DNA of 64,000 nucleotides from Eledone cirrhosa (lineage: Eukaryota): assembly GCA_964016885.1 (NCBI GenBank), contig OZ024740.1, positions 150,350,001 to 150,414,000 of the forward strand, in the 5' to 3' direction. The position numbers and the translations under genes were made by a program. The notes under the pieces were generated by a model. It did no database searches. It was not told the origin of the DNA and worked only from the letters and a program-made list of their open reading frames with translations. Shown here one piece after another: positions 6,585-57,900 of this stretch (position 1 is its first letter; each line of letters opens with the position of its first letter).

Positions 6585-6768
6585 TTTATCCCGGGTTCAA
6601 TCGGGGGTAACCACAGTAAGTAAGGTACTCAATACATATCAGAGTATAAATATTTAATATAGAAATGGCTTCTACAGGACTAGAACTGTTTCATTTAGGA
6701 GAAATCATTAGGGCTTCCTGATGATTTCTCCCGAATGAAACAGTTCTAGTCCTGTAGAAGCCATTTCT
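6582..6768. mobile_element. small HHR-bearing fold-back element (PLE pLTR-like); same family as 46704-47010
   Basis: Inverted arms AGAAATGGCTTCTACAGGACTAGAACTGTTTCATT / AATGAAACAGTTCTAGTCCTGTAGAAGCCATTTCT; lies between (TA)n and (CT)n. Confidence 0.7.
6712..6762 (+). ncRNA. type I hammerhead ribozyme
   Basis: Stem I GGCTTC/GAAGCC; CTGATGA 6718-6724; stem II TTC/GAA; GAAA 6737-6740; stem III CAG/CTG; GTA triplet. Confidence 0.75.
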
Positions 6769-6792: not shown

Positions 6793-6831
<39 letters not shown>

Positions 6832-6992
6832 TTTGCATGTTTCTTTCACCTGCGTCTTCCCACGATGGGATCTGCACACTTTTTTCTTCTATTCCTTTCC
6901 TATGTTCCCCTTCTTGCTCTCTCCTCATCTCCCCCCCCCCCTGTTCTTCCTCATTTCCCTCTCTCTCCCTTTTTTTCTCTCTTTCTCTCTCC

Positions 6993-7113
6993 TTTTCCAC
7001 CTGGCCTTTTGATTAATAAAAGGCCCCTGGCGCACCCGAACTATACCGATGTCCCGTAATTCAGCGCCGAAACATCGGTTCGGGATACATTTACAGCTGA
7101 CGATGGAAAGTCC
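6993..7113 (+). ncRNA. candidate non-circularly permuted (pseudoknotted) hammerhead-like RNA, copy 1
   Basis: ACCGATG-TC pairs with GAAA-CATCGGT; GGCGC/GCGCC precedes GAAA; CCGTAA/TTACAG precedes CTGACGA; same topology at 46401-46509. Confidence 0.6.
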
Positions 7114-7494
7114 TTTCTTTCTTTCTCCTCCTCTTCCGCCCTAACCACCATCCTAAACCTTGTTTTTAGTAACCACACAGCTCCTTTCGTTTCATATCAT
7201 TATATATATATATATAAATGCACTTACTTTCTCTCTCTCACCCACATATATATAAAACTACATGTTTGCGCCTCTATCGTGTTCCAGCAGAAAGCGAGGT
7301 AGAGGGGTGCTTTACCTTAATAATGCCCATACGTCAGAAACAGCTATCGGTAATTCCCCCTTGTTTCTGCTGGAACTCGTTAGATGGGACCTTGCCACCA
7401 CCTCTTAATATTCACAGCTAAAGGCTTTCAAATGTTCATTTGTAAATATATCGTATACTATTCGATATACAATACACACACACACGCACGCACG

Positions 7495-8790: not shown

Positions 8791-9255
8791 CAAAGTTTGT
8801 TTTATAAATATTGACATAACCAGGAAGAAGAACTTAACGGTTCAAGTTCAAATTATTAAGATGAGTATGCAAATGAGGTTGAGGTATAGGGCTGAAAAAA
8901 ATGTTATTTTTAGACGCTATGTAGATTTAAATAATCATTAGGATATATATATGTATGTGTAGGAAGAAGAAATAAGAGCTTGTATTTACGTTAATTTAAA
9001 AAGAATTAATATATATATATATATAGTGAATGAATGAAGAATCCTAACTATGGAAACATCTTGTGGAGTATTGATGATTCTTTTTTATCTTGAAGTTCTC
9101 GCCAGTGTTCATTTAACCGTTCTCCTATGCTACGAGCTCTCTCACCTATGTACACTATATTCTTATCTTTACATTGTCCTTCAGTACATCTTATACTATA
9201 TACTACATTTCTAGTTTCACAGTTAATATGGTGGCTTAGTTTACAGATTATGCAT

Positions 9256-9573
9256 TTTAACTGTAAAACTAGAAATGTAGTATATAGCATAAGATGTACT
9301 GAAGGACAATGTAAAGATAAGAATATAGTGTACATAGGTGAGACAGCTCGTAGCATAGGAGAACTTCAAGATAAAAAAGAATCATCAATACTCCACCAAC
9401 ATGCTAAAATAGAACATAAGGGCAAATTAGAGAACATAGAAATAAAAATAGAATCTACACACAGAAAAGACGCAATGTTTAGACAAATCACAGAGGCAAT
9501 AAACATAAATGAACTCCAACCAAAATTAAATAGAAAACATGAATGGAATAGCAACATCACAACTTACAATTAA
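9256..9573 (+). pseudogene. Penelope GIY-YIG endonuclease C-terminal fragment
   Basis: NCKTRNVVYSIRC...YIGETARS...HAKIEH...RQITEAININELQPKLN. Confidence 0.85.
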
Positions 9574-46149: not shown

Positions 46150-46184
<35 letters not shown>

Positions 46185-46400
46185 CCATCTCGCAGTCTTT
46201 TTCTCACTTACACTCGCTGGGGTCAATCGTGTCTTTACCTTCGCCCACACGTTCTCGAACTTAAGTTCTGTTACCGCTGTGGTCTTGGATTTTCTTACCT
46301 TAAGTTGCTCGCACATTCCCTGGTTTGTTGTTTTTTTCGCTGTTTTATCCTTTCTTCCCTTTTTCCCTTTTCCTTTCTATTTTCCTTCCCTCCCTCCTTC

Positions 46401-46509
46401 GTTTTCCCAACAACTTACCCGATTATTGAACGCTCTGGAGGTAGATATATTGTCTTTAAAGCGTTGAAATATCCGAGATCCCCAGTAGACAGCTGATGAG
46501 GAAAACTCC
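46401..46509 (+). ncRNA. candidate non-circularly permuted hammerhead-like RNA, copy 2
   Basis: GATA-TA pairs with GAAA-TATC; AACGCT/AGCGTT precedes GAAA; TTGTCT/AGACAG precedes CTGATGA; GTTTTCC/GGAAAAC closes the motif. Confidence 0.6.
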
Positions 46510-46589
46510 CCCCCCCCACCGCTGTTGCTTTCTTCTTATTCTCATTCCATTTTTAAGCCTAAGTTAAATAGCAACTACACAGCCAATCC

Positions 46590-46690
<101 letters not shown>

Positions 46691-46703
46691 ATATATATAT
46701 ATC

Positions 46704-47010
46704 AACAATACATAGCAGAGTATACATTTTTAATATAGAAATGGCTTCTACAGGACTAGAACTGTTTCATTCAAAAGAAATAATTGGGAAGGAAATCATC
46801 AGGAGACGCTTTCCTGATGATTTCCTTGGAATAAAAGAGTTCTAACCGTGTAGAAACCATTTATATATATATATATATGATGATTTCCTTCCCAATTATT
46901 TCCTTTGAATGAAACAGTTCTAGTCCTGTAGAAGCCATTTCTATATTAAAAATGTATACTCTGTTATGTATTAAGTGCCTTACTGTGGTTACCCCCGATA
47001 AAGCCCGGGA
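46704..47010. mobile_element. HHR-bearing fold-back element; same family as 6582-6768
   Basis: Inverted arms with three partial (C)TGATGA...GAAACAG..CTGTAGAAG cores. Confidence 0.7.
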
Positions 47011-54919: not shown

Positions 54920-57900
54920 TCGTAAAAGGTTATCAGAAATAACAACACAATCGGTACAGTATATGGAAGGGATATATTAAGTTAGCGCTTGATATAGCAG
55001 GAAGAGGGTCTTAACGTTTCGAACGCTAGTCCTTCATCAGAAGAAAGAATGAGAAATAAGATAGATTGAGGGGACGGGCGGGTTGAAATTGGAAAAAAAA
55101 TGTCTTTAGATAAAAATAACAGGTCCATTCATGTTGACATCTCTTGTTGACATCACCAAAACTGTTGGTGCTGATATTTTGTGTATGATTTATTTTTTAG
55201 AAAAGTGGATGATGGAGCGCGTCTACCAGAAATGGAAAAGAAACCGTTTTGAAAAAAGAGCTATCCTTGTGCACGTGCGTAAGCATGTGTGTGTGTATAT
55301 GTGTGTGTTATTAAACGTCCGTACAAAGCTAAGAAGAAATGTGTGTGTATATGTGAGTAAAAGAGTGTGTGCATGTAAGTACGAAGCTACGAGGAAAAGT
55401 AATTAATATAAGGGTGTGTATGTGTGTATACAGAGCAGTGAAGGGATGAGTGAGCATATACAGTCGGTCTGTATTAGTTGTAAGAAAAGATGTTAATGAT
55501 CAAGAGAAAGCGATAGGAATCTAGGGGTGTGATAATGGACGGAGTATTAGAGAAATTGGGGAGGTGTGTTGAGTCCAAGAGGGGAATAGGACCCAAGGCG
55601 GTGAATCAGACTTTGTTAAGTCCTGGTGCGCGAGGCCTGTGAAACATGTAGGAAAGAATGACCAGGAGAACAGAAATGACGAGCGACAGGCGTATCCAAA
55701 CCGAGTCGTATGACCCTCAAATGCTCGGCAAAACGGTCCGCCGTACGGCGTCCCGTTTGTCCGATATATAAAGACCGCTAATGGAACACCAGAGGGCATA
55801 GACAACGTGGGTGGATGTGCAGGTGAAAGAGTGGCGGATATGGAAAGACACGTTAGGGCCTGTAAGAGTGGTGAGGGTGGAAATGAAGGGACAAGTGTTG
55901 CAGTGGGAATGGGAACAAGGATGAGAGCCGAGTGAAATCGTGGGAGAGGACGAGAAGGAACTGCGAACCAGGAGGTCGCGGAGGTTGCGGGCGCGCTTAA
56001 AAGCAGTAATGGGTGGGTTTGGAAAAAAGCGAGAAGTGACGGGGTCAGAGAGAGGATGGCGGAAGGAACGGAGGATATGTCGCCGGAGTGGTAGGGTGAT
56101 GGGGTGGTAGGTGATCAGGAAAGGAATGCGGGTAATTGGTGAGAGGGCTGTGGTGCGGTCTGTTTCACGGGCGCGGGTGAGAGCAGCTTGGATCACGCTG
56201 GATGAAGCAGGAAGTCATGCGAAGGGAATGGGTCTCGAAATCGTCGTCCTGGCTACAGAGCCGACGAAGACAGAGGAATTGGGAATAAGGTATAGAGTGT
56301 TTGGTGTAGGTTGGATGGGAGGAGGTGAAGTTGAGGTAAGATTGGGAATCTGTTGGTTTAATGAAGATGGAAGTAGAGAGGGTGTGGTGAGAGTGATTAA
56401 TAGATAGAGAGATATCTAGAAAAGTGACAGAAGAATCGGAGACAAAGGCTGTGAAATTGAGAACAGGATGGAAAGATAGGACAAAAGAAAGAAAGCAGTC
56501 GAGCTGTTCTCGTGATAGAGAGGTGGCGTCGATACAGTCGTCGATATAACGACTCTATAGCTCAGGAGTCGGTCCAGCGTACTGGGAGAAGATTTGGGCT
56601 TCGACATAGCCAACAAACAGGTTGGCATAGTTTGGACTCATTCTGGTTCCCATCGCTACCCCAGAAACTTGCTGATAAAATTCACCCCAAAAAGAAAAGC
56701 CATTGAGGGTGAGAACAAGCTCAGCCAGACGAAGAAGAGTGGTAGTGCTGGGGTAAAAGATAGGGCGTAAGTCTAAAAAATGTTGGAGAGCGCGGAGGCC
56801 GTCATCATCGGTGTAGAGCGAGGTGATGTCCAGGGTAAAGAAAAGGCGAGAGGGACCAGGAGGGAAGGAGAAGGAGTTGAAGAGTCTAAGGGCATGATTT
56901 GTATCGTGGATGTGGGACGGGAGATTGCCGACCAACGGGGCGCGGATGGTGTCTAAATATTCAGAAATTATCTCGGTGAGGCAGTTACACGCAGACACGA
57001 TAGGACGGCCGGGGTTATTTTGTTTATGTTCGTTGGATTTTCTAATTGGATTTTCACCCCGAAACTGGATACCAACCCGGAGTACTCCTGAACTTCTACC
57101 AGGAAATCTTTCGTATCTTTGACATTTTCTTTGCTTCTTGCATTTAAATATTCCACGACTCTCTACCACTTTTCCTCTACTACAATATTCTTACACCACC
57201 TTCTTCATCGCATCCGTCTATTTTTCACTCCCACCCTAGTACCTTCAATATGCCCAATCTCAAATCTTTTCTCCGCCAGCTCCATTCTACTCTCAAGCGC
57301 TTCCTCCAGCCTCTCCCCCCTATATGCATCCAATCCTCCCAGCATCTCTCCAACCTCCTCTTCACCAAAACAAAATACAACAGTCACATTACCTTTTTAA
57401 GACGCTGTCTCCACCACCACCTCATTCCCTGCGGTTTCCGCCTCAAGTTCCACTCACCTCTTACTCTGCTCCCACCATTGAGCCCATCCTTACCCGCTCC
57501 TCTCGCCAGCTCATGCGGGCGACCATTCGATCAACTCTCGCCCAAATCTGTTCTGTCGACCGAGATCTCCCCAAGGCCTACCTCCATCTCTCCTCCACTT
57601 GCCAATCTTTCCTCGTCCAATCCGTTATCTAATTCATCCTTTACCTCAATCGCCTCCTTTTCAATTTCCTCACTTCCATAACAAACCACAAACTCGACTC
57701 TCCGCTCTCCGCCTGCCGTCAACACCCATACTCATATCACCTCCAACCCTAACCCTTCTATCCCGTCACCTACCACCCCCTTTCCTCTTTTCACCCCTGA
57801 ATCTGCACACGCTTTGCCCAGCCACCTTAACCCTTCTGCCTCCGCCTCTTTCACTCCCTCACGTCCCTACACTGTAGTCACCATACCCCAGGACCTCCAC

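Follow-up and report, generated by a model that had tools for sequence, protein, structure and literature searches.

Eckert et al. 2023 described hammerhead ribozymes in terms of three blocks, C, G and S, which the available part of that paper takes as uninterruptible, and found that types SGC and CSG cleave (PMC10085705). According to the same part, the S-G-C order was published as type SGC from environmental RNA and cleaves in vitro at 0.007-0.19 per min, and type CSG was published from two soil DNA sequences. The type SGC examples given there are of metatranscriptome, metagenome and RefSeq origin, and the terms octopus, metazoa and nematod are absent from the accompanying supplement. Natural hammerheads tolerate one extra base between A9 and G10.1 (PMC3705267; accessible text of PMC4209133), and the passages of PMC3088659 that deal with insertions at this position give 1-2 nt only. 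In the literature that we searched, a helix junction at A9/10.1, natural or engineered, had no precedent. Among Penelope-like elements (PLEs), the Naiads were reported without canonical hammerheads; the core or half core seen in some of them matched none of the descriptors (Craig et al. 2021, PMC8557442, in the portion available).

The window analysed here is a 64,000-nucleotide stretch of the Eledone cirrhosa genome, and at positions 6993-7113 of its plus strand we found a complete hammerhead core consisting of CUGACGA (7097-7103), GAAA (7069-7072) and a GUC triplet with a predicted cut after C7053. The core strands and stems assigned in the initial annotation all lie where it had placed them (15/15, counting 13 quoted strands, the cut dinucleotide and GAAA). 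Along the plus strand these are TTTTCCA (6993-99), two hairpin arms (7003-10/7018-25), GGCGC (7029-33), CCCGA (7035-39), ACCGATG-TC (7045-53), CCGTAA (7054-59), GCGCC (7064-68), GAAA (7069-72), CATCGGT (7073-79), TCGGG (7080-84), TTACAG (7091-96), CTGACGA (7097-7103) and TGGAAAG (7104-10). Stem III has 8 bp, the first being A15.1-U16.1, and stem I abuts C17 and C3 without a gap, with one C.A mismatch in the window copy. CUGANGA, GAAA and NUH are thus all present, and the correct register of stems I and III can be read directly from the sequence. What is missing is a stem II that joins the strand following A9 to the one preceding G12; two other helices, here called IIb and P0, stand in for it. 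The minus strand showed no in-register core (by eye). Standard models miss the motif, as had been anticipated: a search of Rfam with the 64-kb window returned zero matches at the gathering threshold, and none of its hammerhead models matched 6800-7300 up to E=10.

The helix map runs from 5' to 3' through P0, hairpin IIc, IIb, Pi, stem III, NUH, stem I and a 4-nt linker, and then through IIb, GAAA, stem III, Pi, stem I, CUGANGA and P0. The 5' strand of P0 (6994-6999) pairs with 7104-7109, directly after CUGACGA, in a duplex of -5.5 kcal/mol, and a P0 of at least 6 bp recurs in 24 of 26 matches of family A, the repeat family to which this copy belongs. Hairpin IIc (7003-7025), the second added arm of a predicted four-way junction, is present in the MFE fold, and four of the seven pairs of its equivalent covary in other subfamilies. 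These pairings, noticed earlier and treated as an add-on to the core, are real, but as P0 and IIc they would instead re-close the link between A9 and 10.1. The 5' strand of IIb (7029-7033) lies upstream and pairs with the strand preceding GAAA (-8.4 kcal/mol), and this stem has 5 bp in 22/26 family A matches. Helix Pi follows, its 5' strand (7035-7039) pairing with 7080-7084, and five of its six pairs covary in other subfamilies. The initial annotation had regarded CCCGA/TCGGG as a plain extension of stem III; judged by connectivity, it is better described as Pi, likely corresponding to the helix through which stems I and II interact in types SGC and CSG. In terms of blocks, S (7045-7059) holds the 5' strand of stem III, GUC and a stem I strand, and G (7064-7084) holds the 3' strand of IIb, GAAA and the 3' strands of stem III and Pi. 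Block C (7091-7109) is split, with a stem I strand and CUGACGA followed by the 3' strand of P0 in place of a stem II strand. The linker from stem I to IIb spans 4 nt (7060-7063).

From sequence comparisons, we consider the motif to be, with good probability, a monomeric hammerhead of slow to moderate self-cleavage. It would process read-through and tandem transcripts close to the 3' end of the repeat; IIb would serve as stem II, and P0 and IIc would close the split core. The active site would be that of standard hammerheads, the short linker would place IIb beside stem I, and Pi would hold the far ends of these two stems together in the manner of types SGC and CSG. The step from A9 to 10.1 would be widened into the junction of P0 and hairpin IIc.

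Direct pairing of the strand after CUGANGA with the strand before GAAA amounts to 0 bp in 26/26 family A matches, in which the base after A9 pairs within P0 and the direct 10.1-11.1 pair is absent (U.C). Non-A subfamilies have exactly one direct pair, 11.1-10.1, which covaries (UG in 5, UA in 4, AU in 3, CG in 1, unpaired in 1). Since direct pairing is limited to 0 or 1 bp, stem II would then open into the P0/IIc/IIb junction. Alternatively, the motif could be an ordinary type SGC hammerhead with a minimal direct stem II of 1-2 bp, P0, IIc and IIb forming a resting or inhibitory fold that opens before cutting. We regard this as unlikely. It agrees with the direct 10.1-11.1 pair in 13/14 non-A representatives, with the 2 bp that 25/26 family A matches reach when one base is skipped and with the unpaired base that is common at the 5' end of stem II in PLE hammerheads (accessible text of PMC4209133). 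However, the next direct pair would be A.G in 13/14 of these representatives, the direct helix is worth -0.5 kcal/mol against -8.4 for IIb and -5.5 for P0, and several Naiad ends lack a direct 10.1-11.1 pair and have a gap-free junction (by eye, in the portion of PMC8557442 available).

The split hammerhead that we favor resembles type SGC (HRIMA-1 and variants), as described in the available part of PMC10085705, in its S-G-C block order, its full set of core bases, its multiple pseudoknots, its short linker between stems I and II (~3 nt there, 4 nt here) and a fourth helix that ties the outer ends of I and II. In contrast to type SGC, block C is broken here: the strand after CUGANGA pairs with upstream P0, stem II uses another upstream strand, and a hairpin lies between the two. 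The motif therefore breaks a block that the available part of PMC10085705 treated as unbreakable. A strict SGC descriptor was passed by only three mutated copies of a second family, B, at its 3-bp floor. As to the novelty of the strand order, which the initial annotation had left to be checked, it is indeed a non-circular permutation, but the order itself was already published as type SGC; undescribed relative to the published type are the stem II made from an upstream strand and the four-way junction in which P0 and a hairpin re-close the A9/10.1 gap. The motif is predicted to work like a type SGC hammerhead and yet misses one defining trait of the type. Type CSG, its ends joined and then opened between A9 and 10.1, would give exactly this strand order, although its block C is whole and lacks P0 and IIc in the available description. 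By connectivity, we infer SGC or CSG circularised and reopened between A9 and 10.1, so that, topologically, the motif would belong to the SGC/CSG/GCS set as a circular permutation whose opening falls within block C. We found no description of the split fold or of a Naiad ribozyme in the literature searched, in which subscription journals were little covered; the supplementary figures of PMC10085705 may bear on novelty.

The motif belongs to a short Penelope-like repeat that lacks an ORF and is inserted in (TA)n, and it lies close to the 3' end of this repeat. The window copy (6832-7213, plus strand) is a 5'-truncated, non-autonomous member of family A flanked by (CA)n and (TA)n, with 89% identity to positions 393-785 of a full unit at another locus (L016). 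A first look with the 136-nt motif region gave 876 candidates in the host genome, the 40 scored ones being 93-100% identical. Family A copies have a common 3' end ~90 nt past the core, then (TA)n, and variable 5' ends, and they are arranged as direct tandems or inverted pairs; 3'-end position, arrangement and (TA)n targets were all observed directly. Truncated 5' ends, a constant 3' end, copies in partial tandem or inverted arrangement and microsatellite targets together make up the layout described for PLEs (PMC8557442, in the portion available). In families A, B and C, a full unit measures ~460-790 nt and holds ATG ORFs of at most 71 aa. In 18 tandem cases (L002, L016, L047, L062, L079 and others), members of these families restart with a common 10-nt motif straight after the tail of the previous copy, and this motif is a candidate for a 5' end or priming signal common to all three. 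The repeats share with minimal type I hammerheads of PLEs a location near the repeat 3' end, tandem or inverted copies and a proposed role in precursor processing; these minimal hammerheads, in contrast, have C-G-S order, a tiny palindromic stem III and dimeric action, against S-G-C order, a long stem III and monomer closure here (accessible text of PMC4209133). Similarly, non-LTR retrozymes are short, non-coding, hammerhead-bearing, non-autonomous Penelope-like derivatives, but they carry type I hammerheads in tandem arrays, and the words pseudoknot and octopus are absent from the accessible text (bioRxiv 10.64898/2026.07.22.740005).

Tandem copies lie 350-790 nt apart, which would allow the active form to be a dimer in which P0 or IIb forms between neighboring copies and restores an unbroken core. 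The dimeric function of other PLE hammerheads (accessible text of PMC4209133) and the palindrome GCGC within the IIb strands of family A agree with such an arrangement. On the other hand, whichever strands are exchanged between copies, the one that follows CUGANGA does not become complementary to the one that precedes GAAA, every helix closes inside one 115-nt monomer, and stem III is long and non-palindromic; we consider a dimer very improbable.

At six positions the window copy has a base other than that of most family members, and one of these changes creates the C.A pair in stem I. The mismatch in this stem, mentioned in the initial annotation, is specific to the copy, position 7055 being T in the family and C in the window. 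Its stem I has an energy of -1.4 kcal/mol, against -4.1 in an ordinary family A copy (L004), and stem I has at least 6 bp in 25/26 descriptor-passing family A matches; the window copy would probably cleave more slowly than is usual in its family. Among BLAST-selected copies, the core is intact in 31/34 of family A and 25/32 of family B. Core bases are only slightly less mutated than other positions within these families (0.3 vs 0.58 changes per position in A and 0.8 vs 1.2 in B), as expected of dead-on-arrival copies.

The window holds a second motif with the same helix map at 46401-46506 (plus strand), with a predicted cut after A46449, in an element spanning ~46182-46595. This is a member of family B, which has 1,694 candidates in the host genome and no BLAST similarity to family A. 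A third family, C, was found from a flank and has 1,636 candidates that are 98-100% identical. Families A, B and C share one helix map without BLAST-level similarity among their cores. The genome-wide scan for the strand order that the initial annotation had proposed gave 17,922 matches (8,923 + 8,999) to the S-G-C core-order pattern, some overlapping matches being counted twice, vs 23 (14 + 9) to the reversed pattern, or ~18,000 intact-looking cores. The more detailed descriptor yielded 119 distinct matches, which fell into 19 clusters, and 1 match in 3.0 Mb of reversed/complemented control sequence. In a blind 300 kb sample it gave 1 real and 1 chance match, which agrees in order of magnitude with the genome-wide pattern count. 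A metagenome scan with one subfamily D pattern gave 0 matches.

Covariation in the stems, the other check proposed at the outset, was scored in 14 of 18 aligned rows. The rows removed were A, A2 and those of the two window copies; the pair count excludes family A because the joint MAFFT alignment had misplaced its block S. Pairing held in 95.2% of 475 cells among the 14 representatives of non-A subfamilies, against 27-45% in slid controls. Compensatory changes on both sides were found in 21/34 pairs, and 0/500 shuffles were as high; the subfamilies are related, so the shuffle counts are not probabilities. Each of the seven helices has at least one double change, P0 being the weakest (1/4 pairs). 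That the motif is a rearranged hammerhead carried by a mobile family, as first suggested, is supported by register, copy number and this covariation, all of which are direct observations. Chance assembly of short motifs in a repeat, without RNA function, might be argued from the empty Rfam result and from family A copies too alike for much covariation on their own. It is refuted by the controls, both genome-wide and in the 3.0 Mb, and is at odds with the covariation and with the same fold in other phyla, and we give it next to no credence.

Further structural features distinguish the subfamilies. A standard kink-turn, tested as a 3-nt bulge followed by tandem G.A and A.G, lies between stem III and Pi in 66/70 matches of subfamilies C-J, where it gives the bend that the topology requires. 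It is partial in family B (23/25) and absent from family A (0/24, window copy included), which has a 5-nt bulge instead. Family A thus departs from the better-supported subfamilies in lacking both the direct 10.1-11.1 pair and the kink-turn. In the ordinary family A copy L004, the MFE structure is a rival fold that buries the core; a local hairpin at L004:1540-1556, found in the family A majority and absent from the window copy, lies across the 5' strands of IIb and Pi and competes with the proposed active fold. Given this competing fold, family A may be regulated or may misfold. In one variant (L137), P0 is preserved by two double changes; two tandem copies occur at this one locus, and the P0 strand is found in just one of them.

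Transcripts of the repeat would cut themselves after C7053, and some of the cut RNAs might be reverse-transcribed into copies that start just 3' of the cut. Among family A truncations joined to (TA)n, 19/22 start at +2 to +13 from the predicted cut, 3/22 start at -11 to -4 and 0/22 start exactly at +1. This bias of 19 vs 3 has a binomial p of 2e-5, or 1e-4 when A/T positions are weighted; the breakpoints were read by eye at loci within reach of the pattern, and (TA)n microhomology shifts joins. Direct (TA)n joins alone gave 15 vs 2. Of 339 copies chosen on block C only, 100 were listed, and eight of these were truncated within the 60 nt shown, with five at +2 to +14, three upstream and none at +15 to +36; three of these loci overlap with the set of 22. 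Across all families, 15/27 incidental truncations fell between -8 and +15, and 2/27, in families other than A, fell within 1 nt of the cut. The pile-up just downstream of the predicted cut is compatible with cleaved RNA being reverse-transcribed and then losing a few bases. It also argues against a fold kept as a protein-binding or reverse-transcription signal of the 3' end without a meaningful rate of cutting, as does the retention of catalytic bases and NUH in subfamilies that differ everywhere else and across phyla, although the descriptor itself selects for these bases. Such a signal would be in keeping with the Poseidon element, for which hammerhead cleavage was dispensable for insertion in vitro and no reads started at the cut (PMC11167929), with the often poor cutting of PLE hammerheads in vitro (accessible text of PMC4209133) and with the 92 of 100 listed family A copies that span the cut site. 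On balance we think this explanation improbable. If the motif does cut, its role would be to cleave read-through and tandem transcripts ~150 nt before the 3' end of the element, as proposed for other PLE hammerheads.

The same split fold appears at the sense 3' end of at least 8 of 54 published Naiad consensus sequences (by eye, in the available part of the PMC8557442 supplement). These are Naiad_Obim, Naiad_Ovul, three Acropora Naiads (Naiad_Amil, Naiad_Aacu and Naiad_Anas) and three others. The fold is present in Naiad_Ovul, whose consensus is flagged HHR_half_core, and the two octopus consensus sequences place the motif ~90 nt from the end, with a kink-turn and an IIc loop resembling subfamilies C and D. 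At least seven nematode Naiad 3' ends read as complete type CSG hammerheads with an interaction helix (by eye, same source). The numbers of supplement places around CUGANGA that were read, 60/62 for one spelling and 15/23, 15/25 and 10/43 for others, make these counts lower bounds. The repeats described here are like Naiads in their (TA)n targets, 5' truncation, partial tandem and inverted copies, want of a canonical hammerhead and the fold at their 3' ends. They differ in being 460-790 nt long and ORF-less, and in the host genome we found none of them physically joined to a Naiad ORF, which has an N-terminal GIY-YIG and a C-terminal RT. There, Naiads are decayed relics that are 68-82% alike and broken and that resemble octopus Naiads by eye (L229, L234-L284). 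Protein matches to Naiads numbered 115, in open frames of at most 254 aa; a strict Naiad RT pattern gave 0 matches in the host genome, and a looser one gave 5 vs 3 in the control, one of them a true remnant. No ribozyme was recognisable behind the remnants in 16 3' flanks, and our searches of the host genome did not find an ORF-bearing parent of the repeats. Active PLE ORFs of other clades do occur. Judging by the published consensus ends, read by eye, it is likely that the repeats descend from Naiad 3' ends and are moved by the RT/endonuclease of another element.

Two other PLE groups were considered as parents and rejected. A very young family with a 781-aa ORF has no such motif behind its ORFs, and Neptune-like ORFs lack the split motif, 3/10 of their 3' flanks showing CUGAAGA in a type I context (by eye). 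The host genome also holds type I motifs behind other PLE ORFs (by eye).

Several additional elements were noted along the way. The 781-aa family (L111-L113, G000:C2:338033000-338042500 and others) is a high-copy PLE in tandem whose ORF combines RT with a C-terminal GIY-YIG, and by eye its repeat includes a hammerhead core of type I-like form whose stem II is long and branched. The Neptune-like group comprises several families (L209-L228) with open frames of up to 1,096 aa, and three of their 3' flanks hold a type I-like core; no core was seen within 700 nt in the others. Next to subfamily D copies, L166:2770-6000 holds LTR-type gag, RT and integrase frames. Within the window, other Penelope-like RT/GIY-YIG ORF fragments lie at 9060-9570, 14914-15847, 31055-31476 and 55640-56524, and a 7-kb G-rich tandem array with periods of 24, 87 and 111 nt and strong GC skew occupies 17434-24482. 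Finally, 6660-6768 and 46736-46860 are head-to-head inverted pairs of another short repeat end, the arms of which start with CUGAUGA followed by a short stem and GAAAC and look like a 5'-truncated type I Penelope-like hammerhead.

Overall, we lean toward the view that the motif is a natural hammerhead in which the catalytic core strand is interrupted at A9/10.1 and closed again through a four-way junction, a permutation outside the six considered possible; that, together with the nematode CSG forms, it is the missing Naiad ribozyme; that non-circularly permuted hammerheads are abundant in animals; and that CSG gave rise to the split SGC form by way of tandem repeats. With thousands of natural variants whose helices covary, the fold can be tested directly, and engineered switches might be inserted at the predicted core junction. 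If this view is true, hammerhead wiring would extend past the six block orders in the available part of PMC10085705, and non-circular permutations, described from environmental sequence, would gain a known host and a role. It would also revise the published view, as given in the available portion of PMC8557442, that Naiads lack canonical hammerheads and may have no need of them.
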